64,000 nucleotides of DNA, from contig JACPQL010000051.1 in assembly GCA_016190445.1 (NCBI GenBank), forward strand, positions 38,505 through 102,504, in the 5' to 3' direction. The DNA is from Chloroflexota bacterium (GTDB lineage: Bacteria > Chloroflexota > Dehalococcoidia > Lucifugimonadales > JACPQL01). Shown piece by piece: positions 29,968 through 63,650 of this stretch; positions within the stretch are counted from its first letter, which is position 1, and each line of letters opens with the position of its first letter. A model generated the notes under the pieces. It worked only from the letters and a program-made list of their open reading frames with translations. It was not told where the DNA came from and searched no databases. The position numbers were made by a program, and so were the translations under genes.

Positions 29968-29969
29968 CC

Positions 29970-37441: not shown

Positions 37442-37473
37442 AAGCTATTCGGAAAACCCTCACCCCCTTTGGT

Positions 37474-39680: not shown

Positions 39681-39882
39681 ACCCCATTCTGGGTTCAGCC
39701 AACCATACAGGCTCTCCGCCTTTGGCCTGGCAAACCGAACGTGCAGTCTACAATTGGTGCGCTTTCCCCGCCCACGCAGGCGCATGTTATAGGGTTCTCG
39801 CAACCACAGGCTGCGAGACGCCCACCGAGGGGATGAGGCCCAGCGGCCGGAAGGGGCCATGGATGGGAGGAGGAGAAAACCG

Positions 39883-41673: not shown

Positions 41674-41753
41674 CAACTGCCGCTGGTCCCCCAGTTGAAG
41701 GACCAGCACACGGAAGCTGCCTCGGTCAAGCTGGAACAGGAGGTAACCGGACA
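41674..41753 (+). repeat. Conserved short inter-SBP spacer (type 1 of 3 copies)
   Basis: It shares gaaggaccagcacacg...ggaacaggaggtaac(c/t)ggacaATGaaagcgag with 43545..43622 and 47446..47523. It contains the RBS and shows no terminator hairpin. Confidence 0.8.
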
Positions 41754-43544: not shown

Positions 43545-43622
43545 CAACCGCCTGACCCTTTCGCCGAAGGACCAGCACACGCACGCTGCCTCGGGCAAGC
43601 TGGAACAGGAGGTAACTGGACA
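43545..43622 (+). repeat. Conserved short inter-SBP spacer (copy 2)
   Basis: Nearly identical to 47446..47523, and related to 41674..41753. Confidence 0.8.
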
Positions 43623-45413: not shown

Positions 45414-45434
45414 GACAGCCATGGCCACCATCCC

Positions 45435-45468
45435 AGGTCCCGCCCCGGGGGACATCGGGGCGGGACCT
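45435..45468 (+). terminator. Hairpin terminator candidate after SBP copy 3
   Basis: A 13-bp stem aggtcccgccccg (45435..45447) pairs with cggggcgggacct (45456..45468) across an 8-nt loop. The downstream T-tract is weak. Confidence 0.55.
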
Positions 45469-45482
45469 GTTATCCCTACCAG

Positions 45483-45512
45483 TTGACAATGATGACATAG
45501 GTCAGCTAGACT
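45483..45512 (+). promoter_or_regulatory. Sigma70-like promoter for SBP copy 4
   Basis: TTGACA (45483..45488), 18 nt, TAGACT (45507..45512). The leader is about 135 nt. Confidence 0.55.
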
Positions 45513-45651
45513 CGTCGCACCACGCGCCAGAGTGGGCCTTTGAGTCCGCATGTGTGCGCTTGCGGGACGAATTTCGTAGCGCCTGTATCCCTCCCGGCAC
45601 CTAGCCCAGGGGAGGGAGTGACCGGGGTTGTCCCCCAGGAGGAGGTAGGCA

Positions 45652-47445: not shown

Positions 47446-47523
47446 CAACTGCCTGGCCCTTTCGCCGAAGGACCAGCACACGCAAGCCGCCTCAGCCAAG
47501 CAGGAACAGGAGGTAACTGGACA
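47446..47523 (+). repeat. Conserved short inter-SBP spacer (copy 3)
   Basis: See 43545..43622. The homology continues into the 5' end of copy 5, matching that of copy 3 (ATGaaagcgagcg.cagggtccacctaagagtcctttt). Confidence 0.8.
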
Positions 47524-49314: not shown

Positions 49315-49334
49315 CATGACCCCACCACCCCTCG

Positions 49335-49366
49335 AGGCCCACCCTGGCGGGTGGGCCTCCTTTTTT
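49335..49366 (+). terminator. Rho-independent terminator after SBP copy 5
   Basis: aggcccaccc-tggc-gggtgggcct is followed by cc-tttttt-g. Confidence 0.8.
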
Positions 49367-49473
49367 GCTTTCCCGCAATTGTTGCGCCGCTTCCGTCGGT
49401 TGTTGCCACCACCATCCCAGCCCCCAATGTCAGGACGGCCCGTCATCTGTGCAGAACCTCATGAACCCGCAAT

Positions 49474-49502
49474 TTGACAGGACACAGGGGGCCAAATATC
49501 CT
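49474..49502 (+). promoter_or_regulatory. Sigma70-like promoter for SBP copy 6
   Basis: TTGACA (49474..49479), 17 nt, TATCCT (49497..49502). The surrounding block gaacccgcaatttgacaggaca.agggggccaaatatcct is duplicated at 51491..51532. Confidence 0.6.
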
Positions 49503-49551
49503 GGGCGCGTCTAGTTACGAATACACACTACTCCACGGAGGAGGTTGAGGC

Positions 49552-51342
49552 ATGAGACTGAACGTACGGATTCGTCCCCAGGCCCTATGGGGACTGGTCG
49601 GGATGCTGGCGCTCCTGGCGCTACTCGGCGCCTGCGCCGGCGCCGAGCCCACCGCCACCCCGACCCCCACTCCTACCCTGGCCGCAGGGGCACCCACGCC
49701 GACCCCTACGCCCAGGGGTTCCCCCACTCCCACGGCCACACCCCGCCTTGTGGTGGTAGCGACCCCCACGCCCACAGCTACGCCCGGCGCGGTCCAGCCC
49801 ACGGTGCGGGTCCCCAGCGGCAGCATCACCGTGGCCAGCGGGCCCTTGGCCGCCTACACCCACTCCCCAGACTTCCGCTTCGGCGTCTCCGGTGACGTCT
49901 TCTTCCTCCACCCCGCCTTCGAGTGGCTGGTGGGAGTGACCCCAGAGCACGAGCTGGTCTCCATGCTTGCCGAGAGTTGGCAGACACCGGACAACGGCCA
50001 CACCTGGATATTCAAGCTGCGTCAAGGTGTCAAGTTCCACAACGGCAAGGAGATGACCGCTGAGGACGCGGCCGCCAGCTATAACACCTGCTTTAAGAGT
50101 GTCACCACAGGCACCCCGTGCGCCTGGGCCAGAGAGGCCCTCAATCCCTTTGAGGCAGTGGACAAGTTCACCCTTCGCGTAACACTGAAAGAGGCAGGGA
50201 GTAAGATATTCGTGCCTGCCTACTTCGCCCGCTCGTCCTGGTACGGCCAGGTCATCTCGCCCAAGGAGATGTTCGACAAGTACCCTGAAAAGCCCTGGCC
50301 CGTCCAGGATGCCATCGGCACAGGCCCCTACCGCCTGGTGGAGGTGGTGCGCGGAGAGAAGATGCGGCTGGTGGCCCTGGACCCGAAGGCCGACTGGGCC
50401 CACTGGCGCGTCCAGCCCGCCTTCAAGGAGATCATCGTACGCCCCGTCAAGGAGGACGGCACCCGCATCGCCATGATGAAGACCGGCGCCGTTGACCTCA
50501 TTGACGTCCCCGCCGCCCTCAAGAAAGAGGTGGCAGCCTTCACCTTCAGCCGCGCCAAGAACGGGGCCACCGCTGCTCTCCAGAACTTCGAGGGCATGGA
50601 CAACCCCCCCAACGGGTGGTGGAGCAAGAAAGAGGTCCGCATGGCCCTCAACCTGGCCGTTGACCGCCAGGAGATCGCAGACTTCCTCTTCAACGGCGAG
50701 GCCGAGCCCATTGGGGCCCTGCACTTCGGCCCCGGCACGGAAGGGTATGACCCAAGCCTCACACCCTACCCTTACGACCCCGCCAGGGCGCGCCAACTCC
50801 TCAAAGACGCCAACTACGACATGAACTTCGTGTGGAACGTCTGGCTGCGCGGCATGGGCGGCGTCCCCGAACTCCAGGCCTCTGGCGAGGCCATCGCCGC
50901 CAAGTGGGAGCGAGAGCTGGGCCTCAAGACCAAGCTCATCCCCACCGACGCCGCCGTCAGCGCCGCCGCCATGAACAACCATGACCCTGCCATAGTGGGG
51001 CATTTCATCACCCAGCGCTCCACCAACCACCCGGAGGTCACCATCCCCATCGTCACCCGCTCCGTAGGGCCGGCGGTGAGAGGGAAGCACGAATTGCTGT
51101 CGTGGCATGGCGTTGCCCCCACCGACGAGCCCACCAGGCAGCTTCAGGCAGCGACAGACCCCAAGGAACGGGTGCGCCTGGCCCAACAGATACAAAAAAT
51201 CCTCTACGACGAGTACGTCCATGTGGAGGGATGGGCGGTGAATGTGCTCTATGCCTACAACCCTAAGACTATCAAGGTGTTCAACACGCTCCAGGGCTCC
51301 ACATACCTCCACTTCCTGGAGAGCCTGGAACCGCCCAGCTAG
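49552..51342 (+). CDS. Family-5 SBP lipoprotein, array copy 6 (class B)
   Basis: GGAGGAGG RBS. MRLNVRIRPQALWGLVGMLALLALLGAC. SPDFRFGVSGDVFFLH. IFKLRQGVKFHNGKEMTAEDA. 596 aa. Confidence 0.9.
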   Translation: MRLNVRIRPQALWGLVGMLALLALLGACAGAEPTATPTPTPTLAAGAPTPTPTPRGSPTPTATPRLVVVATPTPTATPGAVQPTVRVPSGSITVASGPLAAYTHSPDFRFGVSGDVFFLHPAFEWLVGVTPEHELVSMLAESWQTPDNGHTWIFKLRQGVKFHNGKEMTAEDAAASYNTCFKSVTTGTPCAWAREALNPFEAVDKFTLRVTLKEAGSKIFVPAYFARSSWYGQVISPKEMFDKYPEKPWPVQDAIGTGPYRLVEVVRGEKMRLVALDPKADWAHWRVQPAFKEIIVRPVKEDGTRIAMMKTGAVDLIDVPAALKKEVAAFTFSRAKNGATAALQNFEGMDNPPNGWWSKKEVRMALNLAVDRQEIADFLFNGEAEPIGALHFGPGTEGYDPSLTPYPYDPARARQLLKDANYDMNFVWNVWLRGMGGVPELQASGEAIAAKWERELGLKTKLIPTDAAVSAAAMNNHDPAIVGHFITQRSTNHPEVTIPIVTRSVGPAVRGKHELLSWHGVAPTDEPTRQLQAATDPKERVRLAQQIQKILYDEYVHVEGWAVNVLYAYNPKTIKVFNTLQGSTYLHFLESLEPPS

Positions 51343-51362
51343 AATGGTCGTGGCCACCGTTC

Positions 51363-51396
51363 AAGGCCCACCCTGGCGGGTGGGCCTTCTTTTTTG
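51363..51396 (+). terminator. Rho-independent terminator after SBP copy 6
   Basis: aaggcccaccc-tggc-gggtgggcctt is followed by c-tttttt-g. It is homologous to the terminator at 49335. Confidence 0.8.
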
Positions 51397-51503
51397 CTTT
51401 CCTGTGGTTTTCGCTCTGCCTCCTTGGGGTTGTTGCCACCGCGGCCGGAGTCCCCGGTGCAAGAGCTACCCGCCATTTGTGCAGCACATCCCGAACCCGC
51501 AAT

Positions 51504-51532
51504 TTGACAGGACAGAGGGGGCCAAATATCCT
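51504..51532 (+). promoter_or_regulatory. Sigma70-like promoter for SBP copy 7
   Basis: TTGACA (51504..51509), 17 nt, TATCCT (51527..51532). Confidence 0.6.
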
Positions 51533-51587
51533 CTCCCGCGGCTGGTTACGAAGAACCACGGCTTCAGTAGAAGGAGGACTAGGCACA

Positions 51588-53375
51588 ATGCCGGGCACAT
51601 GGATTCGTATCAAAGCCCTCTGGGCGCTGGCAGGGATGCTCGCACTTGTGGCGCTGCTGGGAGCATGCGCAGGCGCCGAGCCCACTGCCACCCCGACCCC
51701 CACTCCCACCCTGGCCGCAGGGGCGCCTACGCCGACCCCCACACCCAAGGGTTCCCCCACACCCACACCAACACCGCGACTGGTGATCATAGCCACGCCC
51801 ACACCCACTCCCACGCCGGGCGCGGTCCAGCCCACGGCAAGGACCCCCAAGGGCAGCGTCACAGTGGCCAGTGGGCCCCTCTCCGCCTACTCCCACTCCC
51901 CAGACCGGCGCTTCAGCGTCGCTGCCGACTCCTTCTTCCAGGGCATCGCCTTCGAGTGGTTGGTGGGGGTGACCCCGGAGCACGAGCTGGTCTCCATGCT
52001 GGCCGAAAGCTGGGAGAGCCCTGACGGCGGCCACACCTGGATATTCAAGCTACGCCAGGGAGTCAAGTTCCACAATGGCAAGGAGATGACCGCCGAGGAC
52101 GTGGCCGCCAGCTTCAACAGCGACATGCAGGTGGGCACGGGCACGGCCAGCGCGTGGGCCAGGGAGAACCTGACCCCTTACGAGGTGGTGGACAAGTACA
52201 CCGTGCGCGTTTCCCTCAAGGGGGAAGGACGCCGCCTCTTCGTCCCCGCCTACATCGGCCGCTCCTCCTGGTTCGCCCAGGTCATCTCCCCCAAGGAGAT
52301 GTTCGACAAGTACCCCGATAAGCCCTGGCCCGTCTCCGAAGCCATAGGCACCGGCCCCTACCGCCTGGTGGAGGTGGTAAGAGGCGAGAAGATGCGCGGT
52401 GTCGCCCTCGACCCCAAGACCGATTGGGCCCACTGGCGTGTGGTGCCTGCCTTCAAGGAGATCACCCTCCGCCCCGTCAAAGAGGACGGCACCCGCATTG
52501 CCATGTTGAAGACCGGCGCCGCGGACATCATTGACGTCCCCACCGCCCTCAAGAAAGAGGTGGCGGGCTTCACCTTCAGCCGTGCGAAACACGGCGCCAC
52601 CGCTGGCTTGCTGAACACCGAGGGCATGGACAGCGACCTGAGCAAGTGGTGGAAGGTCAAAGAGGTCCGCATGGCCCTCAACCTGGCCATTGACCGCCAG
52701 GAGATCGCCGACTTCCTCTTCAACGGCGAGGCTGAGCCCATCGCAGCCATACACTTCTCCCCCGGCGCCGAGGGGTTCGACCCAAGCCTGAAACCCTATC
52801 CCTACGACCCAGCGAAGGCACGCCAGCTCCTCAAGGACGCTGGCTACGACATGAACTTCGTGTGGAACGTCTGGCTGCGCGGCATGGGCGGCGTCCCCGA
52901 GCTCCAGGCACTGGGTGAGGCCATTGCAGCCAAGTGGGAGCAGGAGCTGGGCGTCAAGACCAAGCTCATCCCCACCGACGCCACCGTCAGCGGCAACGCC
53001 GCCACCAAGCACGACCCGACCATCATCGGCCATTTCATCACCTTCCGCTCCACCAACTTCCCGGACATCTCAGTGCCCATCACCACTTTCTCCGGCGACC
53101 CGGACATAAAGGGGCGCCACGAACTGGTCCCCTGGCACGGAAAGGGGACCATCCACGACAACCTTGTGGCCCTTGGTGGAGCCGCGGACCCCAGGGAGCG
53201 CGCCCGCCTGGCTGGAGAGATACAGAAGACCCTCTACAACGACTATGTCCACGTGCAGGGTTGGTCGGTGCACGTGCTCTACGCCTTCAACCCCAAGACC
53301 ATCAAAGATTTCAGGACTCTCCAGGGCTCCACCTACCTCAACTTCCTGGAGTACCTGGAGCCCCCCACCCCGTAG
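51588..53375 (+). CDS. Family-5 SBP lipoprotein, array copy 7 (class A)
   Basis: ATG 51588 follows AAGGAGGA. MPGTWIRIKALWALAGMLALVALLGAC. SPDRRFSVAADSFFQG. HFITFRSTNFPD. 595 aa. Confidence 0.9.
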   Translation: MPGTWIRIKALWALAGMLALVALLGACAGAEPTATPTPTPTLAAGAPTPTPTPKGSPTPTPTPRLVIIATPTPTPTPGAVQPTARTPKGSVTVASGPLSAYSHSPDRRFSVAADSFFQGIAFEWLVGVTPEHELVSMLAESWESPDGGHTWIFKLRQGVKFHNGKEMTAEDVAASFNSDMQVGTGTASAWARENLTPYEVVDKYTVRVSLKGEGRRLFVPAYIGRSSWFAQVISPKEMFDKYPDKPWPVSEAIGTGPYRLVEVVRGEKMRGVALDPKTDWAHWRVVPAFKEITLRPVKEDGTRIAMLKTGAADIIDVPTALKKEVAGFTFSRAKHGATAGLLNTEGMDSDLSKWWKVKEVRMALNLAIDRQEIADFLFNGEAEPIAAIHFSPGAEGFDPSLKPYPYDPAKARQLLKDAGYDMNFVWNVWLRGMGGVPELQALGEAIAAKWEQELGVKTKLIPTDATVSGNAATKHDPTIIGHFITFRSTNFPDISVPITTFSGDPDIKGRHELVPWHGKGTIHDNLVALGGAADPRERARLAGEIQKTLYNDYVHVQGWSVHVLYAFNPKTIKDFRTLQGSTYLNFLEYLEPPTP

Positions 53376-53397
53376 ACCAGCAGCCGCCGCGCAGGAG

Positions 53398-53430
53398 GGC
53401 CCGCTCCGGTGTGACCGGAGCGGGCCTTTC
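53398..53430 (+). terminator. Hairpin terminator after SBP copy 7
   Basis: A 12-bp stem ggcccgctccgg-tgtga-ccggagcgggcc is followed by tttcc. Confidence 0.65.
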
Positions 53431-53510
53431 CTCTGCCACCTGCAACCCTTGCCACGATGCCATCCCCGGTACCTTTCCCCAGCCCTCCAGCAAATCCACG
53501 CGCACCCCAC

Positions 53511-53540
53511 TTGACAAAAGCGCCGATAGCCCCCTACACT
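53511..53540 (+). promoter_or_regulatory. Sigma70-like promoter for SBP copy 8
   Basis: TTGACA (53511..53516), 18 nt, TACACT (53535..53540). The leader is about 150 nt. Confidence 0.55.
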
Positions 53541-53691
53541 CCCCCTACTACCCACTTCTGGAAGGGCACCAGAGGTTGGTACCGTCTACACCCTCGACGC
53601 TTCGAGACGGATTTCGTACCCCACTCCTCCTGCTCCGGGGTAGCGTCACGGGAAAGCCATAACGGCCCACATATCATCTGGGAGGTGCATA

Positions 53692-55482
53692 GTGAAACGT
53701 AGATACTGGATTCGACCCAAGGCCCTCTGGGCACTGGCGGGGCTGCTGGCGCTTGTAGCGCTGCTCGGCGCCTGCGCCGGCGCCGAGCCCACCGCCACAC
53801 CCACTTCCACTCCCACACCCACCACGGCGGTAGGGCCCGCGCCAACACCCACACCCAGGCCATCACCCACCCCAACACCTACACCCCGCATCGTCGTGGT
53901 GGCAACGCCCACTCCCACACCCACGCCGGGCGCGGTCAAGCCCACCGTCCGCGAGCCCAAGGGGAGCATCACCTTCGCCAGCGGGCCCCTCTCCGCATAC
54001 TCGCACTCCCCGGACCGCCGCTTCAGCGTGGCCGCCGACTCCTTCTTCCAGGGCCTCGCCTTCGAGTGGCTGGTGGGAGTGACCCCCGACCACCAGCTCG
54101 TCTCCATGCTGGCAGAGAGCTGGGAGAGCCCTGACAACGGCCATACCTGGATCTTCAAGCTGCGCAAGGGGGTCAAGTTCCACAACGGCAAGGAGATGAC
54201 CGCCGAGGACGTGGCCGCCAGCTTCAACAGCGCCGCGGCTGTAGGCACGGGCACCTCCGCCGCGTGGCCCCGGTCCAACCTCACCCCCTTTGAGGTGGTG
54301 GACCAGTACACCGTTCGCACCTCGCTGAAGACAGAGGGGCGCCGGATGTTCGTGCCGGCCTACCTTAGCCGCTCCTCCTGGACGGCCCAGGTCGTCTCCC
54401 CCAAGGAGATGTTCGAGAAGTACCCCGACAAGCCGTGGCCTGTCTCCGACGCCATCGGGACCGGCCCCTACCGGCTGGTGGAGGTGGTTCGTGGCGAGAA
54501 GATGCGCGGCGTCGCCCTGGACCCCAAGACCGACTGGACCCACTGGCGAATCGTCCCCGCCTTCAAAGAGGTAATCGTCCGCCCGGTCAAGGAGGATGGC
54601 ACACGAATCGCCATGCTGAAGACCGGGGCCGCCGACCTCATTGACGTGCCCACCGCCCTCAAGAAGGAGGTGGCCGCCTTCACCAACGTCAGCGCCAAGG
54701 GCGGCGCCACCGCGGGCCTGATTAACCACGAGGGCATGGACGCCGAGGTGAGCAAATGGTGGAAGGTCAAAGAAGTCCGCATGGCCCTCAACCTGGCCAT
54801 TGACCGCCAGGAGATCGCCGACTTCCTCTTCAACGGCGAGGCCGACCCCATCGCCGCCATGCACTTCTCCCCAGGAACCGAGGGGTTCGACCCATCCCTC
54901 CAGCCGTACCCCTATGACCCCGTCAAGGCGCGCCAGCTCCTCAAGGACGCCAACTACGACATGAACTACGTGTGGAACATCTGGCTGCGCGGCATGGGCG
55001 GCGTCCCCGAGCTACAGTCCCTGGGCGAGGCCATCGCTGCCAAGTGGGAGCAGGAGCTGGGCGTCAAGACCAAGCTCATCCCCACCGACGCCACCGTCAC
55101 CGGCAACCTTATGGACAAGCACGACCCCAGCATCGTTGGGCAGTTCGTCACGTTCCGCTCCACCAACCATCCCGACGTATCGCTGCCCATCGTGACCTTC
55201 TCCGCCGACCCGGAGCTGTACGGGCGGCACGAGCTGAACCCCTGGCACGGCACTGCGCCCACCCACGACAACATTGTGGCTCTTGGCGCAGAGTCCAACC
55301 CCAAGGAGCGCGACCGCATTGCTCGAGAGCTACAGCGCTACCTGTATGATAACTACATCCACGTGCAGGGCTGGTCGGTAAACGTCCTGTACGCCTACAA
55401 CCCCAAGACCGTAGGCAAGTTCACCCCACTCCAGGGCTCCACCTACCTCAACTTCCTGGAGTACATCGAGCCCTCCAGCTAG
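53692..55482 (+). CDS. Family-5 SBP lipoprotein, array copy 8 (class A)
   Basis: GTG start after GGGAGG. MKRRYWIRPKALWALAGLLALVALLGAC. SPDRRFSVAADSFFQG. QFVTFRSTNHPD. 596 aa. Confidence 0.9.
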   Translation: MKRRYWIRPKALWALAGLLALVALLGACAGAEPTATPTSTPTPTTAVGPAPTPTPRPSPTPTPTPRIVVVATPTPTPTPGAVKPTVREPKGSITFASGPLSAYSHSPDRRFSVAADSFFQGLAFEWLVGVTPDHQLVSMLAESWESPDNGHTWIFKLRKGVKFHNGKEMTAEDVAASFNSAAAVGTGTSAAWPRSNLTPFEVVDQYTVRTSLKTEGRRMFVPAYLSRSSWTAQVVSPKEMFEKYPDKPWPVSDAIGTGPYRLVEVVRGEKMRGVALDPKTDWTHWRIVPAFKEVIVRPVKEDGTRIAMLKTGAADLIDVPTALKKEVAAFTNVSAKGGATAGLINHEGMDAEVSKWWKVKEVRMALNLAIDRQEIADFLFNGEADPIAAMHFSPGTEGFDPSLQPYPYDPVKARQLLKDANYDMNYVWNIWLRGMGGVPELQSLGEAIAAKWEQELGVKTKLIPTDATVTGNLMDKHDPSIVGQFVTFRSTNHPDVSLPIVTFSADPELYGRHELNPWHGTAPTHDNIVALGAESNPKERDRIARELQRYLYDNYIHVQGWSVNVLYAYNPKTVGKFTPLQGSTYLNFLEYIEPSS

Positions 55483-55670: not shown

Positions 55671-56588
55671 GTGCAAGGCTACATTTTGCGGCGGGTACTG
55701 GAGGGGCTGGCTGCCATACTCCTCATGACGGTCATAGTGTTCGCACTGGCACGCCTTTCAGGCAGCCCAGTGGACCTGGTGGCCGGCGAGTACGCCACCG
55801 ACGAGGACAGGGCCCGAGTTACCCACATGCTGGGACTGGACCGACCGGTGGCCCTGCAATACTGGATATTCCTCAAGAACTTCATGCGAGGTGACCTGGG
55901 GGAGTCTATCCGCACCCGTGAGAAGGTCACCGCCTCCATTCTGCACCGCTTTCCCGCCACGCTTCAACTGGCGGGAGGATCCCTCTTGGTGGCCCTTGTT
56001 ATAGCCGTTCCCCTGGGAGTGATCACCGCGGTCAAACGGGACACCAACATAGACACTGCGGGCAAGACCTTTGCCGTTTTGGGCCTGGCTCTGCCCAGCT
56101 TCTGGCTGGGCCTGGTGTTCATTGCCATCTTCGCAGTCAGGCTCCACTGGCTGCCTGCGGCCGGCAGAGGCGGGTTTAGCTACATGATCTTGCCTGCCGT
56201 GGCTATGGGGTGGCACGTCTCTGCTGGCATCCTGCGCCTGGTGCGTGGCAGCATGCTGGAGGTGCTGGACAGCGAGTACATCAAGCTGGCACGCATCAAG
56301 GGACTGCCGGAGTGGAAAGTGGTGTGGAAACACGCCCTGCGCAACGCCGTCATCGCCCCCATAACCTTCACTGCGGTCTACCTGGGCACCTTGCTCGCTG
56401 GCTCGGTAGTGATCGAAACGGTGTTCGTCTGGCCCGGGGTGGGCTTGCTGGCCATCGAGGCCTTCGGCTGGAGAGACTACCCGCTGGTACAGGGCATCAT
56501 CCTCTACATGACTGTTCTGTATATCTTCCTGAACTTGCTGGTGGACATTCTGTACGCTTACGTGGACCCGCGTATCCGGCTGACGTAA
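55671..56588 (+). CDS. ABC transporter permease, DppB/OppB-like
   Basis: GTG start after GGGAGGGAGAGGG. MQGYILRRVLEGLAAILLMTVIVFALARLSG is the typical N-terminus. The binding-protein-dependent transport inner-membrane component region is present (SEYIKLARIKGLPEWKVVWKHALRNA). 305 aa. Confidence 0.9.
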   Translation: MQGYILRRVLEGLAAILLMTVIVFALARLSGSPVDLVAGEYATDEDRARVTHMLGLDRPVALQYWIFLKNFMRGDLGESIRTREKVTASILHRFPATLQLAGGSLLVALVIAVPLGVITAVKRDTNIDTAGKTFAVLGLALPSFWLGLVFIAIFAVRLHWLPAAGRGGFSYMILPAVAMGWHVSAGILRLVRGSMLEVLDSEYIKLARIKGLPEWKVVWKHALRNAVIAPITFTAVYLGTLLAGSVVIETVFVWPGVGLLAIEAFGWRDYPLVQGIILYMTVLYIFLNLLVDILYAYVDPRIRLT

Positions 56589-56603
56589 CCCTCTGGAGAG
56601 CTG

Positions 56604-57500
56604 ATGGTGGATACTACTACTGCTGCCCCAATCCCTGGGCGGATCAACACCAGGACTCAGATGTTCCGCCATCTGCGGCGGATGCCCATCCTGCCGGCCG
56701 TGATCATAGTAGTCATGGTGGGAATGGCCGTGCTGGCGCCTGTGCTTTCCCCCCATTCACCCACCAGTGGCATACTGCGCGACCAGCTCAAGCCCCCCAT
56801 GTGGCTGGAGGGTGGCAGCGGTGAATACCCGCTGGGCACAGACCGCTTCGGACGAGACATCCTCTCTCGCATGATGCACGGTGCAAGGATATCGCTCATT
56901 GTGTCGCTGGTCTCCCTGGCGATAGGTGCCACCGTGGGCGCCACCCTGGGGCTCATATCGGGCTACCTGGGACGCTGGGTGGACGCCCTCATCATGCGCA
57001 TCGTGGACATGACGCTGTCCCTCCCGTTGTTCCTCATGGCCATAGTCCTGGCAGTGATCCTGGGGCCCAACCTCCTGAACGTGATCATCATAGTGGCCTT
57101 CCTGATATGGGCACGCTACGCCCGCATCATCCGGGGGGAGGTGCTCTCCCTTAGAAGCAGGGACTTCGTGGCTCTGGCTAGGGTGGCAGGTGCCTCCCAC
57201 ACACGTATCATTGTCAAGCACCTCTTCCCCAACGTGGCGCACACCCTCGTCATCCTCATAACCCTTCAGGTAGGGTGGGTCATCTTGCTGGAATCATCCC
57301 TCAGCTTCCTGGGCGTGGGCATCCCACCGCCCACCCCAGCCTGGGGCCTGATGGTGGCCGACGGCCGGAACTACGTGGACACGGCCTGGTGGATCTCGGT
57401 GGTCCCTGGCATCGCCATCGCGCTGATCGTTCTCTCCCTCAACCTGGCCGGCGACTGGCTGCGGGATGTGCTGGACCCCAGGCGCCGCCAGATGGCCTAG
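56604..57500 (+). CDS. ABC transporter permease, DppC/OppC-like
   Basis: PLGTDRFGRDILSRMMHGARISL is the OppC N-terminal motif. The EAA-like loop SRDFVALARVAGASHTRIIVKHLFPN is present. 298 aa. Confidence 0.9.
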   Translation: MVDTTTAAPIPGRINTRTQMFRHLRRMPILPAVIIVVMVGMAVLAPVLSPHSPTSGILRDQLKPPMWLEGGSGEYPLGTDRFGRDILSRMMHGARISLIVSLVSLAIGATVGATLGLISGYLGRWVDALIMRIVDMTLSLPLFLMAIVLAVILGPNLLNVIIIVAFLIWARYARIIRGEVLSLRSRDFVALARVAGASHTRIIVKHLFPNVAHTLVILITLQVGWVILLESSLSFLGVGIPPPTPAWGLMVADGRNYVDTAWWISVVPGIAIALIVLSLNLAGDWLRDVLDPRRRQMA

Positions 57501-57537: not shown

Positions 57538-57572
57538 AAAAGGCCCGCCCCAATGGGGCGGGCCTTTCCTTT
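57538..57572 (+). terminator. Terminator after the permease pair
   Basis: aaa-aggcccgcccc-aat-ggggcgggcct-ttcctttg: an 11-bp stem with A-rich 5' and T-rich 3' flanks. Confidence 0.75.
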
Positions 57573-57647: not shown

Positions 57648-57676
57648 TTGACAAGGGAAATAGGCCGCAATATACT
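57648..57676 (+). promoter_or_regulatory. Sigma70-like promoter for the SBP copy 9 / acyl-CoA dehydrogenase / CoA-transferase unit
   Basis: TTGACA (57648..57653), 17 nt, TATACT (57671..57676). Confidence 0.6.
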
Positions 57677-57776
57677 CTGGCCCTGTTGACCGCGGCCACA
57701 CCCCAGGACTCCCCAAAGGAGACACACCACGAAACCGAGCATCCACATCCGCTTCAATGTCTTTCTGCCACTGGTT

Positions 57777-59522
57777 GTGATACTGGCTCTTGTAGCGCTG
57801 CTCGGCGCCTGCGCTGGCGCTGAGCCCACCGCCACACTCGCTCCAACTCCCACGCCCACCCTGGCTCCCGGGGCGCCCGCGCCAACGCCCACGCCCAGGC
57901 CTTCTCCTACCCCTACACCAACACCCCGAGTGGTGATGGTGGCCACGCCGACCCCCACGGCCACGCCAGGCGCGGTGGCACCCACCGTCCGGGAGCCCAA
58001 GGGGAGCGTCACTGTGGCCTGGGCAGCCTTTGCCACAGACGCCAACTCGCCAGACAGGCGCTTCAGCCCATCGGGCTCAGACGCCGTCTTCCAGAGCCTC
58101 GCCTTCGAGTATCTGGTGGGTGTTACCCCCGAGCACCAGCTCGTCTCCATGCTGGCGGAGAGCTGGGAGAGCCCAGATAACGGTCATACCTGGGTCTTCA
58201 AACTGCGAAAGGGGGTCAAGTTCCACAACGGCAAGGAGATGAGCGCCGAGGACGTAGCCGCGACCTTCAACAGCTACATGAAGGTGGGCAGAGGCTCATC
58301 TGGCACGTGGTCCAAGGCGAACCTGAACCCCTACGAGGTGGTGGACAAGTACACAGTGCGCACCTCCTTCAAGCAGGAAGGCGTTCGGATGTTCCTGCCA
58401 GCCTACCTTGGCCGGTCTTCCTGGTTCGCCGGGGTGGTCTCCCCGAAGGAGATGTTCGAGAAGTACCCGGACAAGCCCTGGCCTGCGAGTGAGGCCATAG
58501 GCACCGGCCCCTACCGGCTGGCGGAGCTTGTCCGAGGCGAAAAGGTACGGCTGGTGGCCCTGGACCCCAGGACCGACTGGGTCCAGTGGCGAATCATCCC
58601 AGCCTTCAAGGAGATAATCGTCAAGCCGGTCGCCGAGGACGGCACACGGATTGCCATACTCAAGACCAGCGCCGCCGCCCTGATAGACGTCCCCACGTCG
58701 CTGAAGGGCGAGGTCTCCGGGTATACCCTCGCCAGGGCCGACGCGGGCGCCACCCTGGCCGTCTCGAACCACGAGGGGATGGACAACCCCCCGGACGGGT
58801 GGTGGACCAAGAAAGAGTTCCGCATGGCCCTTAACCTGGCTGTGGACAAACAGGCGGTGGCCGACTTCATTTTCAATGGCGAGGCCAAAGTCACACCTGC
58901 GTACCACTTCTATCCAGGAGCGGAGGGGTTTGACCCCGACCTGAAGCCCTACCCCTACGACCCGGCCCGGGCACGCCAGCTCCTCAAGGACATCAACTAC
59001 GACTTCAACTACGTGTTCAACGTATGGCTCTACAAGTGGAGCGGCGTGCCCGAGCAGCGGGAGTTCGGCACAGCGGTTGCCGCCATGTGGGAACGGGAGC
59101 TGGGCATCAAGACCAAGCTCATCCCCTCTGACACCTCCTCGTACCCGTTATTCCAGAACCACGACCCGCAGACAGTTGGCCAGTTCTTCGCCTCTCGCTC
59201 TACCAGTTTCCCCGACCTGTCGGTGCCAATCATGACCTTTTCCGTCTCAGCAGGGCTGAAAGGCCAACACAGGAACACTCCGTGGCACGGCAAGGGGCTC
59301 ACCGACGATCTCACGGTGGAGCTTGCTGCCGCCGTGGACCCGGCTGAGCGAAGCCGCATCGCCCGCCAGATAGAGCGCGTCCTGTACGACGAATACGTCC
59401 ACGTCCAGGGGTGGGCTGTGAACGTCCTCTTCGCCTACAACCCCAAGCAGATCAAGGAGTTCAAGCCCCTCCAGGGCTCCACCTATATGAACTTCCTGGA
59501 ATACCTGGAACCACCCAGCTAG
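57777..59522 (+). CDS. Family-5 SBP lipoprotein, array copy 9 (class C, most divergent)
   Basis: ALVALLGAC lipobox plus PT tether. SPDRRFSPSGSDAVFQSLAFEYLVGVTP. FKLRKGVKFHNGKEMSAEDV. The only canonical start is GTG 57777, which leaves an n-region-less signal peptide (see findings). 581 aa as called. Confidence 0.85.
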   Translation: MILALVALLGACAGAEPTATLAPTPTPTLAPGAPAPTPTPRPSPTPTPTPRVVMVATPTPTATPGAVAPTVREPKGSVTVAWAAFATDANSPDRRFSPSGSDAVFQSLAFEYLVGVTPEHQLVSMLAESWESPDNGHTWVFKLRKGVKFHNGKEMSAEDVAATFNSYMKVGRGSSGTWSKANLNPYEVVDKYTVRTSFKQEGVRMFLPAYLGRSSWFAGVVSPKEMFEKYPDKPWPASEAIGTGPYRLAELVRGEKVRLVALDPRTDWVQWRIIPAFKEIIVKPVAEDGTRIAILKTSAAALIDVPTSLKGEVSGYTLARADAGATLAVSNHEGMDNPPDGWWTKKEFRMALNLAVDKQAVADFIFNGEAKVTPAYHFYPGAEGFDPDLKPYPYDPARARQLLKDINYDFNYVFNVWLYKWSGVPEQREFGTAVAAMWERELGIKTKLIPSDTSSYPLFQNHDPQTVGQFFASRSTSFPDLSVPIMTFSVSAGLKGQHRNTPWHGKGLTDDLTVELAAAVDPAERSRIARQIERVLYDEYVHVQGWAVNVLFAYNPKQIKEFKPLQGSTYMNFLEYLEPPS

Positions 59523-59534
59523 CAAGGAGACAGC

Positions 59535-60716
59535 ATGGACTTCCGCTTCACTCCTGAGCAGGAGACCTTTCGCAAGGAGGTGCAGGAGTTCATTGCCCGG
59601 GAGACCACTCCAGAGCTACTGAAGGAGATGGACCCGGGGCTGGCCGGTGAGGCCAGCGGCCACGGCCCTCACACCAAGGCATTCATCAAAAGGCTGGGCC
59701 AGCAGGGATGGCTGGGCCTCGCTTGGCCCAAGGAGTATGGCGGCCAGGGCCGCTCCATGATCTACCAGTTCATTCTGGTGGAGGAGCTATCCGGCGCCCT
59801 GGTGCCCACCCCTGGCCTGACCCTCACCTCCGTGGGCCCCACCATAATGCGGGTGGCCAACGAGGAGATCAGAGGAGAGTTCCTGCCCGGCATCCTGAGA
59901 GGGGATATAGAGTTCGCCATCGGCTATACGGAGCCGGGCGCAGGCTCTGACCTGGCCTCCCTCCAGACGAGGGCGGTGCGCGACGGTGACGACTACGTCA
60001 TAAACGGCCAGAAGATGTTCACCACCGACGCCCACCACGCCACCCACGTGTGGCTACTCACCCGCACCGATACCGAGGTGCGCAAGCACCGGGGTATCTC
60101 GATGTTCATCGTGCCCCTGGACACCCCTGGCATAAGCGTGCGGCCCCTCTGGCATATTGGCGAGGGTCGCACCAACGAGACCTTCTACGACAATGTTCGG
60201 GTGCCAGCCCGCTACCTGGTGGGCGAGGAGAACATGGGCTGGTACTACGCCGCCATGGCCCTGGACTACGAGCGGGTGGGTGTGGCACCCTTCTCCCGGT
60301 ACGTGCGCACCTGGCGCCTCCTGGTGGACTTTTGCAAGGAGACCGCCTGGGACAGCAAGCCTCTCATAGCGGACCCGTGGGTGCGCAGCGCCCTGGCCCA
60401 GATGGGGGTGGAGGTGGAGGCGGCCCGCCTCCTCGCCTACCGCACCGCCTGGATGATTGACCAGGGACAGGTGCCTAACTATGAGGCCTCGGCCCAGAAG
60501 GTGTTCGCCACGGAGCTGGTCCAGCGCATGGCCAACACGGCCACCCAGATTCTGGGTCTGTACGCCCAGCTCATGACAGGCTCCAAGTGGGCACCCACCG
60601 ACGGCAAGTGGGAGCGCCTCTACCGCTCCGTCCGCAACCGCACCGTGGGCGGCGGCAGCAGCCAGATGCAGCGCAATATCATAGCCCTTCGTGGCCTGGG
60701 CCTGCCCAGGGGGTAA
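59535..60716 (+). CDS. Acyl-CoA dehydrogenase (IVD/LCAD-like catalytic-base arrangement)
   Basis: The AAGGAG RBS lies in the 12-nt gap after SBP copy 9. GYTEPGAGSDLASLQTRAVRDGDDYVINGQKMFTT is present. LDYER and VGGGSSQMQRN replace the MCAD-type YEGT. 393 aa. Confidence 0.9.
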   Translation: MDFRFTPEQETFRKEVQEFIARETTPELLKEMDPGLAGEASGHGPHTKAFIKRLGQQGWLGLAWPKEYGGQGRSMIYQFILVEELSGALVPTPGLTLTSVGPTIMRVANEEIRGEFLPGILRGDIEFAIGYTEPGAGSDLASLQTRAVRDGDDYVINGQKMFTTDAHHATHVWLLTRTDTEVRKHRGISMFIVPLDTPGISVRPLWHIGEGRTNETFYDNVRVPARYLVGEENMGWYYAAMALDYERVGVAPFSRYVRTWRLLVDFCKETAWDSKPLIADPWVRSALAQMGVEVEAARLLAYRTAWMIDQGQVPNYEASAQKVFATELVQRMANTATQILGLYAQLMTGSKWAPTDGKWERLYRSVRNRTVGGGSSQMQRNIIALRGLGLPRG

Positions 60717-60786
60717 GAGCGCACCCGGGGCCACGGCCCTGGCGACAGCCAGCCTTTGCCAAGCTTCGTCCGTCGAAAGGGGCGTC

Positions 60787-62013
60787 TTGTTTCCAGAGAA
60801 AGGAGAGGAACAGCCTCTATCGGGAGCACGGGTCCTGGAGGTAGGCAACTACATCGCCGGGCCCTTCTGCACCAAGCTGCTGGCCGACTTCGGCGCCGAG
60901 GTCATCAAGGTGGAGCACCCGGGCCGGGGCGACCTGGCGCGCCACGCAGGGCCCTTTCCCGATGACCTGCCGGACCCGGAGACCAGCGGGCTCTTCCTGT
61001 ACCTGAACGCCGGCAAGAAGAGCATCACCCTGGACCTGAGCACTCCCAGCGGTGCTCGCTACTTCCGGGAGCTGGCCTGTAGGGCCGACGCCGTGGTGGA
61101 GAGCCTGCGGCCGGGCGTCATGGCCCGCTGGGGGCTGGACTACCCGTCCCTCAGCACGGGCAGGCCGGGCCTCAGCAGCAGCAACCCCCGCCTGGTTATG
61201 GCCTCGGTCACCGACTTCGGGCAGACCGGCCCTTACCGGAACTACCCTGCCAGCCACCTGACCCAGTGCGCACTGGCGGGCTGGGCCTGGTATGCGGGGG
61301 AGCCCCAGCGACCGCCACTCCAGGCTGGCGGGCACTTCACACACTACTTGGTGGGTGCCGTGGCAGCAATGGGAATGCTGGCGGCGCTCTATCACCAGGC
61401 GGAGACGGACGAGGGCCAGTTCTTGGATATCGGCGGCCTGGAGGCGCTGGTCAGCGTCATAGCCCCGGCGGTCACCGCCTCAGCCATGGGGAGCGATAAC
61501 CCCGGTCGCCAGGGGAACGCCTTTCCAGGCACGGTGGAGTGCCAGGACGGCTATGTAGGCATCAACGCCCTGAGCTACGGGCACTGGGTGAGCGTGTGCC
61601 GCCTGCTGGGTCTGGAGGAGCTGCTGGATGACCCCCGCTTCGACAGCAGCTTTGGGCGTCAGCGCCACGGCCAGAAGCTGGTCGAGCAGGCACGCCCCTG
61701 GCTCATGGCCCGTACCAAGGAGCAGGTGTTCCAGGAAGGCCAGGAGCACCGCATTCCCACCGCCTACGTCAACACCCCGGAGGACCTGGTGCGCTCCCCT
61801 CACCTGGATGCCCGCCACTACTTCCGGCAGGTGGAGCACCCCCGGCTAGGACACGTAAAGGTGCCCGGACCACCGTTCCGGCTGGACGCCTCCAGGCCGC
61901 AGCCCGTGGCCTCGGCGCCGCGCCTGGGAGAGCACACCGCTGCGGTGCTGGAAGCCGAGTTCGGCCTTGACCGCGACGACCTCCGCCGTCTGCGCGCGGA
62001 GGGAGTGATCTAG
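60787..62013 (+). CDS. Family III CoA-transferase, copy 3
   Basis: LSGARVLEVGNYIAGPFCTKLLADFGAEVIKVEHPGRGD. I prefer the start at TTG 60787, whose N-terminal length matches the paralogs. ATG 60691 would overlap the ACAD gene by 26 nt. About 408 aa. Confidence 0.85.
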   Translation: MFPEKGEEQPLSGARVLEVGNYIAGPFCTKLLADFGAEVIKVEHPGRGDLARHAGPFPDDLPDPETSGLFLYLNAGKKSITLDLSTPSGARYFRELACRADAVVESLRPGVMARWGLDYPSLSTGRPGLSSSNPRLVMASVTDFGQTGPYRNYPASHLTQCALAGWAWYAGEPQRPPLQAGGHFTHYLVGAVAAMGMLAALYHQAETDEGQFLDIGGLEALVSVIAPAVTASAMGSDNPGRQGNAFPGTVECQDGYVGINALSYGHWVSVCRLLGLEELLDDPRFDSSFGRQRHGQKLVEQARPWLMARTKEQVFQEGQEHRIPTAYVNTPEDLVRSPHLDARHYFRQVEHPRLGHVKVPGPPFRLDASRPQPVASAPRLGEHTAAVLEAEFGLDRDDLRRLRAEGVI

Positions 62014-62014
62014 A

Positions 62015-62107
62015 AACTGCTGCAAAAGTCCTGAGGACTTTTGCAGCAGTTATCCCCACCCCCAGAGGGAGCGGGGGACCCCGTTGCAAAACTCCGTTTT
62101 GCAACGG
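62015..62107. repeat. Twin perfect palindromes between the paired CoA-transferase genes
   Basis: A 37-nt palindrome aactgctgcaaaagtcct-g-aggacttttgcagcagtt (62015..62051) and ccgttgcaaaac-tcc-gttttgcaacgg (62081..62107). Both have a TGCAAAA...TTTTGCA core. Confidence 0.85.
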
Positions 62108-62124
62108 CCTGTAGGAGGTAGTCC

Positions 62125-63366
62125 TTGAGAAGACTGCCGCTGGAAGGTATCAGAGTCCTGGACGCCACCCACTTCTGGGCCGGCCCATCCGCCACGGGCA
62201 TCCTGGGAGACCTGGGCGCCCAGGTGGTCAAGGTTGAGTCCATCCAGCGATACGATGCGGGCCGCACCCTCCAGGTTGACCTCTCCCAGGAGAAGGGGTA
62301 TGAACGAGCCCCCGCCTTCCAGGCGTTCAACCGCAACAAGCTGGGGGTGACCCTGAACCTGGGAGACGAGCGCGGCGTCCGGGCCTTTCGCGCTCTGGCC
62401 CGCGTCTCTGACCTGGTGATGGAGAACTTCAGCGCCGGCGTCATGGACCGCCTGGGGGTAGGCTATCAGGCACTGCGCCGGGAGAACCCCACGCTGGTCA
62501 TGATATCCATGTCCGGCTACGGCGCCACTGGCCCCTGGCGGAGCTATGTGGCCTTCGCCACCCCCATAGCCCAGGTGTCGGGCATCGCCCACCTCACCGG
62601 CTATCAGGGCGGCCCGCCACTGAGCAGGTTCAGCGCCTCGGGAGTGGACCCCATAGTCGGGCTTTTCGGGGCCATGGCAGCACTGGTCGCCCTCCATCAG
62701 CGGCGGCGCACTGGTCGCGGCTTTTACCTGGACTTCAGCCAGCACGAGGCCATCGTCAGCCTCATGGGCACACCCCTTATGGACTATGTGCTGAACGGGC
62801 GGAACCAGGCCCGACAAGGGGACCGCAACCCGGTGGCGGCCCCCCACGGCTGCTATCCCAGCCGGGGCGAGGACCGCTGGGTGAGCATAGCTGTCTTCAA
62901 CGACGACCAGTGGGAGCGCCTCTGTCATGCCCTGGAAAACCCGGAGTGGTGCAGGGATAGGCGCTTCGCCGACGCCGTGGGCCGCCACCGGCATCAGGAC
63001 GACTTGGACCAGCACATCACCAGGTGGACCTCCCAGCGGGACGCCCAGGAGACGGCCCGGCTGCTCCAGGAGGCGGGGGTCCCCGCCAGCCCTGTCCGCA
63101 ACTGCCGGGAGGTGCTGGATGACTCTCACCTGGAAGCGAGAGAGTTCTTTCTGGAGATGGACCATCCGGTGGCGGGCCGCCACAGGCAGCCTCGCCACCC
63201 TGTCCTCTACTCCAAAACTCAGCCACCACCGCCACGGCCAGCCCCCCTTCTGGGAGAGCACAACCAGGCCATCCTGAGTGGTCTGTTGGGCCTGAGTCGA
63301 GAGACCCTAGAGGAGCTGGAGCAGGACCAGGTAATCGGGACCGTCCCATTGCGGACCAAGGTGTAG
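62125..63366 (+). CDS. Family III CoA-transferase, copy 4
   Basis: TTG start after AGGAGG. LEGIRVLDATHFWAGPSATGILGDLGAQVVKVESIQRYD. 413 aa. Confidence 0.9.
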   Translation: MRRLPLEGIRVLDATHFWAGPSATGILGDLGAQVVKVESIQRYDAGRTLQVDLSQEKGYERAPAFQAFNRNKLGVTLNLGDERGVRAFRALARVSDLVMENFSAGVMDRLGVGYQALRRENPTLVMISMSGYGATGPWRSYVAFATPIAQVSGIAHLTGYQGGPPLSRFSASGVDPIVGLFGAMAALVALHQRRRTGRGFYLDFSQHEAIVSLMGTPLMDYVLNGRNQARQGDRNPVAAPHGCYPSRGEDRWVSIAVFNDDQWERLCHALENPEWCRDRRFADAVGRHRHQDDLDQHITRWTSQRDAQETARLLQEAGVPASPVRNCREVLDDSHLEAREFFLEMDHPVAGRHRQPRHPVLYSKTQPPPPRPAPLLGEHNQAILSGLLGLSRETLEELEQDQVIGTVPLRTKV

Positions 63367-63411
63367 TCCCCTCAGAGTCTTTCAAAGTTGTGGATTCGAC
63401 CCCCATCCTGA

Positions 63412-63468
63412 CCTTCCCCCGCAAGCGGGGGAAGGGACATATCCTCTCCCCCGTTGCACGGGGGAGAG
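63412..63468. repeat. REP-like GC-rich hairpin pair
   Basis: ccttcccccgc-aa-gcgggggaagg (63412..63435) and ctctcccccg-ttgca-cgggggagag (63444..63468). The CTCTCCC...GGGAGAG style matches 37474..37502. Confidence 0.7.
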
Positions 63469-63558: not shown

Positions 63559-63650
63559 GGAGGGATCGCATAGTGGCCTAGTGCGCCCGCCTGCTAAGCG
63601 GGTTGGGGGCGATAGTCCCCTCACGGGTTCGAATCCCGTTCCCTCCGCCA
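63559..63650 (+). tRNA. tRNA-Ser (anticodon GCU), class II with long variable arm, CCA encoded
   Basis: Acceptor stem GGAGGGA/TCCCTCC. 3-bp D stem GCA/TGC with a GG-containing loop. Anticodon stem CCCGC/GCGGG with loop CUGCUAA. Variable arm GGGGG..CCCCU. T arm ACGGG-TTCGAAT-CCCGT. Discriminator G plus CCA. Confidence 0.9.

Follow-up and report, generated by a model that had tools for sequence, protein, structure and literature searches.

What is a solute-binding protein of the peptide-transporter type doing at the head of a set of acyl-CoA genes? The question is raised by a stretch of 64,000 nucleotides (64 kb, here called the window; G+C content 62-68%) from a Chloroflexota bacterium (GenBank assembly GCA_016190445.1, contig JACPQL010000051.1, positions 38,505 to 102,504), in which nine tandem genes encode solute-binding proteins (SBPs) of family 5 and the last of them, SBP copy 9 (SBP9), lies directly upstream of genes for an acyl-CoA dehydrogenase (ACAD) and two family-III CoA-transferases (CoAT1 and CoAT2). 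An earlier note on this DNA had proposed that SBP9 is transcriptionally fused to these enzyme genes. We hold, with moderate confidence, that the four genes form a unit for taking up a bulky carboxylic acid and activating it, composed of SBP9, a BbsEF-like transferase and a ChsE4-type ACAD, the later steps being encoded elsewhere. Given the gene order, motifs, homologies and linkage described below, and with the ligand class, the CoA donor and the direction of flux all as predicted from them, SBP9 would, as a surface-tethered lipoprotein, capture the acid and pass it to a single permease pair (55671-57500) that also serves SBP copies 1-8; a heteromeric family-III CoA-transferase would then form the acyl-CoA from a donor such as succinyl-CoA, no ATP being spent, with CoAT1 as the non-catalytic a subunit and CoAT2 as the Asp-bearing catalytic b subunit of a BbsEF-like heteromer; and the ChsE4/FadE26-type ACAD would introduce an alpha,beta double bond. 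CoA transfer and dehydrogenation would thus be the first two steps inside the cell by which a bulky or branched acid enters a route resembling beta-oxidation. The remaining steps, and any beta subunit of the ACAD, would be encoded elsewhere in the genome.

The case for a single unit starts at the junction of SBP9 and the ACAD gene (the coordinates of all features are collected in Table 1). The TAG stop codon of SBP9 (59520-59522) and the ATG of the ACAD gene (59535) are separated by the 12 nt and the AAGGAG sequence that the earlier note had described, and no inverted repeat, hairpin or terminator-like site was found in or near this gap by repeat, fold and terminator scans. Upstream, the hairpin that appears to close the permease operon folds at -34.7 kcal/mol (z = -3.5), and the promoter-like site between it and SBP9, which coincides with the left coordinate of the earlier note (57648), scores highest in the region from 55.4 to 64 kb, where the same scan found no further promoter-like site downstream of it. 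TTGACA promoter-like boxes also lie 5' of SBP copies 1, 4, 6, 7 and 8 and of the permease genes (12 sites against 2.3 expected), so that the SBP array appears to be divided into several units, of which SBP9-ACAD-CoAT1-CoAT2 is one. The gap between the ACAD gene and CoAT1 is ~70 nt, given a CoAT1 start that is probably the TTG at 60787, after AAAGGGG; CoAT2 likewise starts with TTG, has AGGAGG 6 nt upstream, and follows CoAT1 at a distance of 111 nt. All three enzyme genes thus retain Shine-Dalgarno sequences, and all four open reading frames (ORFs) are intact and carry a strong coding signal in GC3 (G+C at third codon positions). A candidate terminator at 60767-60784 was rejected, its stem being only 5 bp long and overlapping the ribosome-binding site of CoAT1, in a spacer that scores z = 0.1 against shuffled sequence. 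The two hairpins that follow the CoAT2 stop codon (fold z = -4.4) are likely to mark the end of the unit. These features support the prediction that 57648-63468 is one transcription unit. Of the fusion first proposed, the promoter-like site of its own, the upstream hairpin and the clean SBP9/ACAD junction speak for it; the tight fusion is confined to SBP9 and the ACAD gene, and hairpins lie between the two transferase genes.

Homology places the ACAD among the alpha-type subunits of alpha2beta2 dehydrogenases. Its top solved relatives are Tcur3483 (6wy8_B, 7.9e-88) and ChsE4/FadE26 (4x28_A, 6e-85), with the next entry at 2e-43; in this structure search, ordinary ACADs fall ~40 orders of magnitude behind the alpha subunits of the alpha2beta2 steroid ACADs, and in bits the known alpha subunits score 288-298 as compared to at most 152 for all other solved ACADs. 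Glu246 of the window protein (in LDYER) is matched in the alignment by Glu247 of chain 4x28_A (in LNHER), which is reportedly the catalytic base of ChsE4; a P-T-P stretch aligns with the Pro89/Pro91 loop of ChsE4, and a GGG stretch with a Gly at which 6wy8 and 6wy9 differ. The segment TVGGGSS falls at what we take to be the position of MCAD Glu376, with Gly in place of Glu. In enzymes of this kind the catalytic Glu belongs to the alpha subunit, as do the sites for the substrate and the flavin ring; the ADP-ribose of FAD is bound by the beta subunit, and prolines of the alpha subunit widen the pocket for bulky acyl groups (PMC11153573). The ratio of nonsynonymous to synonymous substitutions (dN/dS) relative to the ACAD of its nearest relative (locus L087) is 0.26, a sign of purifying selection.

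The company that this ACAD keeps in structure searches might suggest a narrower role, in which the locus would be a steroid or bile-acid side-chain module and the ACAD a ChsE4 orthologue acting on 3-oxocholest-4-en-26-oyl-CoA or a similar compound. Tcur3483 and ChsE4 are its best solved relatives, some databases label homologs at 50-54% identity "3-oxocholest-4-en-26-oyl-CoA dehydrogenase alpha subunit", and relatives of the locus encode MaoC pairs together with thiolase-like and DUF35 proteins, in the manner of ChsH1/H2-Ltp2. We nevertheless regard a steroid module as very improbable. The ACAD reaches no NCBIfam equivalog cutoff (its top model, the PimC large subunit, TIGR03204, gives 216 against a cutoff of 623.85); there are no Kst/Hsa-type ring-degrading genes, Mce4 or cyp125 among the window genes scanned; activation would proceed by CoA transfer and not by a FadD-type ligase; and the ACAD family also holds PimC and many uncharacterised paralogs from Dehalococcoidia and SAR202. 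It is among metagenome-assembled genomes of these same two groups that the nearest genome relatives of the ACAD are found, the best match in a scan of GTDB representatives being 55% identical.

The presence of two CaiB/BaiF-type CoA-transferases after the ACAD gene, as noted earlier, is confirmed by full-length PF02515 matches, and the likeness to BbsEF that had been remarked upon holds chain by chain. CoAT2 has its best solved relative in chain B of benzylsuccinate CoA-transferase (9fn0_B, 1.7e-70; 241 bits as compared to 101 for chain A), and CoAT1 is closer to chain A (6.9e-48; 167 bits as compared to 140 for chain B), with a match to the formyl-CoA transferase entry 10uh_A slightly above that to 9fn0_A. 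With regard to Chloroflexus SmtAB, which the earlier note had also named, the CoAT pairs of the window stand at 200-243 bits with their nearest NCBIfam models, those of mesaconate and glutarate transferases, whose cutoffs are 700-750. The Asp of CoAT2 (motif GVDPIVG) stands in a column where SUGCT, YfdE and 10uh all have Asp, as does that of CoAT4, the second member of another transferase pair in the window (CoAT3/CoAT4); this column, which we take to be the catalytic one and equivalent to Asp169 of Frc, is occupied by His in CoAT1 and by Gly in CoAT3, and two alignment programs disagree about it for chain B of 9fn0. With His in place of the catalytic Asp, CoAT1 is probably a non-catalytic partner. 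The same asymmetry appears in a census of 49 transferase ORFs from related loci of Chloroflexota, Proteobacteria and Actinomycetota. Of 30 genes of the b type, 29 retain the Asp; of 20 genes of the a type, 1 retains it and the others have Q, H, E, Y, L or M. The a-then-b gene order is conserved in the related loci, and natural fusions occur: locus L093 (3619-6033) encodes a complete CoA-transferase fusion of 804 aa whose N-terminal half lacks the Asp and whose C-terminal half has it, and there are 11 further partial a-b fusions among the homologs of CoAT2 (proteins P0243-P0249, P0320 and others). The Asp asymmetry, the gene order and the fusions together give indirect support to what the earlier note had suspected from adjacency, namely that CoAT1 and CoAT2 form a heteromer; it would be an obligate one, in which one subunit is catalytic and the other structural.

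SBP9 is by domain a family-5 (SBP_bac_5, PF00496) protein, with 185.7 bits against the Pfam cutoff of 32.4 over residues 138-490, and has the lipobox LLGAC followed by a Pro/Thr linker; the same lipobox is present in 9 of 9 copies. It is the most divergent of the nine, 65-69% identical to copies 1-8, and beyond these eight paralogs no relative above 35% identity was found among 5.8 billion proteins, which makes the nine-member family look like a lineage-specific tandem expansion. SBP copies 5 and 6 are each followed by a terminator-like hairpin of nearly the same sequence (GGCCCACCCTGGCGGGTGGGCC and a run of T; 49334-49359 and 51363-51388), and copies 2, 3 and 5 (41.7-47.6 kb) have an almost identical 5' leader of ~60 nt; from these matching hairpins and leaders it appears that the duplication units took in flanking regulatory DNA. 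With respect to ligand, SBP9 stays below the NCBIfam equivalog cutoffs for DppA (56.7 against 1005), OppA (38.1 against 947), Opp4A (70 against 650), NikA (96 against 393) and GsiB (88 against 594). Its nearest solved relatives are opine-binding AccA and entries named "Heme-binding protein A" and "putative binding protein YliB" (both names standing for glutathione binders), all ahead of DppA. The equivalog failures and the AccA/YliB-type nearest structures give a weak indication of what SBP9 may bind. The two permease genes upstream encode the only translocator in the window, and several SBPs serving one translocator is a known arrangement in the PepT family.

Linkage in other genomes bears most directly on whether the neighbourhood of SBP9 and the ACAD has a meaning. 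We counted independent loci in which a family-5 SBP gene (SBP5) lies within 6 kb of an ACAD-alpha homolog; a first hidden Markov model (HMM) for SBPs, built mostly from the window copies, had found SBP5 in 2 of 80 genome loci, and a broader HMM and closer relatives were then used. By this measure SBP5 is present in 4 of the 11 independent loci whose ACAD shares 55% identity or more with that of the window, and in 5 of the 159 below 55% (Fisher p = 0.001), including 0 of 60 in the range from 45 to 55%. The earlier note had staked its proposal on linkage to SBP genes in related genomes, and SBP5 genes do occur in the ACAD/CoAT/thiolase clusters of loci L003, L088, L093 and L094. Among more distant loci, L173 has almost the layout of the window itself, and its SBP-permease-permease stretch (6395-9955) has no ATPase gene, as in the window. 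What is widespread is a module of ACAD-alpha, ACAD-beta, YHS, MaoC hydratases, a thiolase-like protein, DUF35 and CoAT a and b, of which the window locus is a trimmed version. The pairing is repeated in related groundwater bacteria, and the "peptide-type" transporter therefore probably imports bulky organic acids.

Table 1. Features of the 64-kb window and gene orders of related ACAD loci (window coordinates count from the first letter of the stretch; ACADa and ACADb, alpha- and beta-type ACAD genes; percentages after a locus, identity of its ACAD to that of the window)
Feature or locus	Position	Strand	Remarks
Second a/b CoA-transferase pair, CoAT3/CoAT4	28765-31271	+	CoAT3 Gly, CoAT4 Asp at catalytic position
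MFS transporter, oxalate/formate-antiporter or L-lactate type	31268-32641	-	convergent with CoAT4; SfMCT 4.8e-48, below cutoff
HpcH/HpaI aldolase	37469-38491		upstream of SBP array
D-2-hydroxyacid dehydrogenase	38531-39508		upstream of SBP array
SBP copies 1-8, paralogs of SBP9	39859-55482	+	66-82% mutual identity
Two PepT-family ABC permease genes (DppB/NikB-like, DppC/NikC-like)	55671-57500	+	domain annotation; only translocator of the window
Terminator-like hairpin, closing the upstream permease operon	57539-57567	+	perfect 14-bp stem, 100% complementary; A-tract before, T-rich tail after
Sigma-70-type promoter-like site	57648-57676	+	TTGACA-17 nt-TATACT; 11/12 consensus positions
SBP copy 9 (SBP9), family-5 (PepT/Dpp/Opp-type) solute-binding lipoprotein	57729-59522	+	PF00496, 1.8e-54
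SBP9/ACAD junction, caaggagacagc	59523-59534	+	12 nt; Shine-Dalgarno AAGGAG at 59524-59529
ACAD, alpha-type subunit of alpha2beta2 ChsE4/FadE26/Tcur3483/PimC kind	59535-60716	+	PF02771, PF02770, PF00441 above cutoffs
CoAT1, a-type family-III CoA-transferase subunit	60787-62013	+	PF02515 3.8e-103, 345.9 bits, model 1-366/366
Two perfect hairpins, CoAT1-CoAT2 spacer	62015-62051; 62081-62107	+	18-bp and 12-bp stems; -61.4 kcal/mol, z = -8.1
CoAT2, b-type family-III CoA-transferase subunit	62125-63366	+	PF02515 7.3e-112, 374.5 bits, model 1-366/366
Two 11-bp G+C-rich hairpins after CoAT2 stop	63412-63468	+	perfect-repeat scan
tRNA-Ser(GCT), downstream cluster boundary	63559-63650	+	tRNA and Rfam scans
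Locus L003 (= L004 = L095), 67%			SBP5-ACADa-ACADb-YHS-MaoC-like x2-thiolase-like-DUF35-CoATa-CoATb-MaoC x2
Locus L088, 67%			CoATb-ACADa-SBP5
Locus L093, 56%			fused CoAT-ACADa-ACADb-YHS-SBP5
Locus L094, 55%			ACADa-ACADb-SBP5-SBP5-thiolase-like-DUF35
Locus L089, 56%			Opp-type ATPase (1066-2043)-ACADa
Locus L173, distant			LacI-SBP5-permease-permease-ACADa (orphan)-CoAT-...-ECH-ECH; SBP5, permeases and ACADa on one strand
Locus L162, distant			...SBP5-permease-permease-monooxygenase-ACADa-ACADb-YHS; SBP5, permeases and ACADa on one strand

Several observations weigh against an uptake-plus-activation unit, and they are taken here together with two other explanations of the locus. The only close relatives of SBP9, copies 1-8, accompany permeases and not acyl-CoA genes. 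The ACAD-linked SBPs of related loci have identities of ~25% both with SBP9 and among themselves, so that the recurrence is one at the level of the family and not of orthology; the two SBP5 proteins of L094 (2692-6368) have in common with the window SBPs a post-lipobox GGAEPTAT and a Pro/Thr tether, with binding domains ~25% identical. An ABC ATPase gene was found nowhere in the window, either in the gene list or by domain scans. The adjacency of SBP9 and the ACAD might be incidental, with SBP9 as one more binder of peptides, opines or metallophores in the array, read-through into the three enzyme genes implying no substrate in common, and the acyl-CoA genes in the service of general or amino-acid-derived acyl-CoA metabolism. 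Membership of SBP9 in PF00496, the position of its close relatives beside Dpp/Nik-like permeases, the rarity of SBP5 below 55% ACAD identity (with none in the 60 loci between 45 and 55%) and the Shine-Dalgarno sequence that the ACAD gene has for itself would all suit such an explanation. We consider it unlikely nonetheless, for SBP5 and permease genes lie inside ACAD/CoAT/thiolase clusters in four gene orders among independent relatives, with the enrichment given above; the promoter-like site before SBP9, with no other downstream, would make the ACAD and transferase genes depend on the SBP9 promoter; and SBP9 falls below every peptide-binder equivalog cutoff.

The remaining points against the proposed unit concern its completeness. 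SBP copies 1-8 have an ATG or GTG start 27-28 codons before the lipobox Cys and GGAGG 6-9 nt upstream of it; copy 9 has AAAGGAG at 57716-57722 and, after a spacing of 6 nt, ACG (57729) at the homologous start position. The first canonical start of SBP9, and the one annotated by NCBI (581 aa), is GTG 57777, from which 11 residues precede the lipobox Cys and the charged n-region is missing, a full signal peptide being obtained only from ACG 57729. The ACG could be a rare non-canonical start, the loss of a start codon or an assembly error; given an ancestral start that reads ACG and the abnormally short signal peptide from GTG 57777, SBP9 may be poorly made. Two very stable hairpins stand between CoAT1 and CoAT2, and the transcript could end or be processed at them. 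They fill the spacer of 111 nt, which compares with ~2-60 nt separating the a and b transferase genes of most loci related to this one. Both lack a T-tract after the stem, neither has a further copy in the window or an Rfam match above threshold, and a terminator, a processing site and an inserted element are all possible. A beta-subunit gene was found neither after the ACAD gene nor elsewhere in the window, and a hydratase, a thiolase and DUF35 were not found in the window either. In addition, the motif by which beta holds the ADP part of FAD is degenerate in this alpha subunit, as it likewise is in alpha subunits that are paired.

Read in another way, the same gaps would make the locus a complete module of the L003 kind in decay: beta, hydratases, thiolase and DUF35 would have been lost, hairpin DNA inserted and the SBP start codon changed to ACG, and the pathway would no longer function. 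L003, the closest relative with context (67%), has a full 12-gene module, of which the window retains three functions, and the ACG start and the hairpin-filled spacer would be further marks of decay. The pairwise dN/dS of SBP9 is 0.29-0.39, above the 0.18 of copies 1 and 7. The four ORFs are intact, however, with their strong GC3 signal, the enzyme genes have kept their Shine-Dalgarno sequences, the ACAD shows a dN/dS of 0.26, and both Glu246 and the Asp of CoAT2 are retained. Orphan alpha genes also recur, moreover, in apparently complete operons (L173, L088, L087 and L089) and in a separate clade of their own (L023, L026, L039 and L066). On balance we think decay a distinctly poor explanation of the locus.

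In 61 of 81 related ACAD loci a beta-type gene comes directly after alpha; the alpha gene of the window is an orphan. The nearest relative of the window ACAD, that of L087 (74% identical and from the same sample), is itself an orphan alpha, and the two are sisters in a neighbour-joining tree. Comparison of orphan and paired alphas, with homomeric and heteromeric ACADs in view, revealed no motif difference at the positions compared, and this alpha subunit may accordingly work either alone or with a beta subunit encoded elsewhere. In 21 of the 52 loci with full flanks, spread over several phyla, a gene for a small YHS protein (~66-76 aa) follows ACAD-beta (for example L003, 4056-4286; L090, 12315-12521; L093, 8509-8718). 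In Mycobacterium and other Actinomycetota (L061, L069, L077, L080 and L082-L086), CoATb-CoATa on the opposite strand is followed by ACADa-MaoC-DUF35-ACADb-thiolase; this conserved actinobacterial cluster is a relative of the same module.

Returning to the proposed uptake-plus-activation unit, its scope can be narrowed by the other genes of the window. The pathway of the earlier note ran from acid uptake through CoA activation and dehydrogenation to aldol cleavage; the first three steps are favoured by the homologies, catalytic residues and linkage described above, and the last is not. The aldolase and the D-2-hydroxyacid dehydrogenase upstream of the SBP array were correctly recognized, as their domains confirm. 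The HpcH protein resembles HpaI and GarL, at 153 bits where the cutoff is 369, and enzymes of that class cleave free 4-hydroxy-2-oxo acids and not CoA esters; its gene lies 18 kb upstream of the unit, with a terminator-like hairpin of its own at 39534 behind it, and so belongs to a separate hairpin-ended unit. The genes for C-C cleavage that were seen in relatives are thiolase-like and DUF35 genes, HpcH homologs not having been searched for there.

A second CoA-transferase pair beside an MFS gene had also been pointed out, and it is found as described, the MFS gene being convergent with it on the minus strand. A transferase pair next to a transporter of oxalate/formate or lactate type fits the carboxylate theme and proves nothing about SBP9. 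CoAT3 starts ~17 nt (28747-28765) after a gene for a UbiA-family prenyltransferase, which belongs to a run of quinone- or haem-related genes, namely two of UbiA type, one of UbiE type and one for an amine-oxidase-like flavoprotein; with so short a gap this transferase pair may be co-transcribed with the quinone/haem-related genes. Cytochrome c oxidase genes in the window encode an aerobic respiratory chain, and the organism is thus probably aerobic. A Stickland-type 2-hydroxyacid route, leading from the D-2-hydroxyacid dehydrogenase through CoA-transferase and dehydratase to the ACAD, was considered and rejected, because no 2-hydroxyacyl-CoA dehydratase domain occurs among the scanned window genes and because of that aerobic chain. 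At the other end of the window the minus strand (133-17432) carries four ORFs of very great length (1156, 607, 2124 and 1629 aa), of which two have CARDB, Big_13 or fn3 Ig-like repeats and are probably surface proteins, and the other two have no Pfam match.

Every component of the locus comes from a known family, and what is new lies in the coupling with a PepT importer, in an alpha subunit that stands without beta and in how generally one transferase partner lacks the Asp. The resemblance to BbsEF (PDB 9fn0) lies in two adjacent paralogous family-III genes, each nearer to a different Bbs subunit, and ends with an identity of only ~30-40% and an ACAD of the alpha2beta2 alpha type in place of a BbsG-like one; no bss or bbsG/H/CD-like genes occur among the window genes scanned. 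The bbs pathway proceeds by CoA transfer, ACAD, hydratase and a thiolase with a DUF35 partner (BbsAB) (PMC10818641), a logic that the gene content of relatives L003 and L005 matches. With ChsE4-ChsE5 (FadE26-FadE27, 4x28), Tcur3481-Tcur3483 (6wy8) and PimCD the window ACAD has in common the catalytic Glu on an LxxER helix, the Pro loop and the GGG; it differs in having no beta gene within 64 kb and in being linked to CoA-transferase and SBP genes instead of an acyl-CoA ligase. The importers of the PepT family (TC 3.A.1.5), such as DppA/OppA, NikA, GsiB, HbpA, AccA and AgaA, are similar in their PF00496 domain and in the adjoining Dpp/Nik-like permeases, whereas in the window there are nine lineage-specific paralogs in tandem, the locus lacks ATPase genes, and SBP9 is predicted to be transcribed together with acyl-CoA enzyme genes. 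An importer of bulky acids is known in CamABCD of Rhodococcus jostii RHA1, a putative family-5/PepT system. CamABCD is an ABC importer of cholate metabolites, which are bulky carboxylates of steroid origin whose degradation then depends on CoA (PMC8399759). In the passages of Landry et al. 2017 (PMC5395668) covered here, the many family-III transferase paralogs of SAR202/Chloroflexota are read as serving ATP-free activation of diverse acyl compounds, and these passages mention neither a/b pairing, nor loss of the Asp in one partner, nor a link to SBP5/ABC genes.

A wider and more speculative proposal, to which we give less than even credence, is that the PepT-type importers of a groundwater Chloroflexota lineage have been recruited wholesale for bulky, branched or alicyclic acids (terpenoid-, hopanoid- or steroid-derived, or humic-like), with rapidly diverging arrays of lipoprotein SBPs (nine here) that would feed an ATPase-less permease pair, and with a Chs/Bbs-like module whose first enzymes would be a CoA-transferase containing a pseudo-subunit and an ACAD alpha subunit that works without a dedicated beta. 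The four-gene unit of an SBP, an ACAD and two transferase subunits is in any event a concrete, expressible target for ligand finding, and FadE26-type ACAD alpha subunits with no neighbouring beta gene offer testable enzymology. If our reading is true, family-III CoA-transferases made up of a catalytic and an Asp-less subunit would constitute a class that spans phyla, and many of the "peptide/nickel" ABC transporters of uncultured Chloroflexota would have been mislabelled by annotation pipelines, being in reality gateways for recalcitrant organic acids. This would in turn bear on the turnover of refractory dissolved organic matter by their abundant relatives in the subsurface and the deep ocean, the Dehalococcoidia and SAR202.

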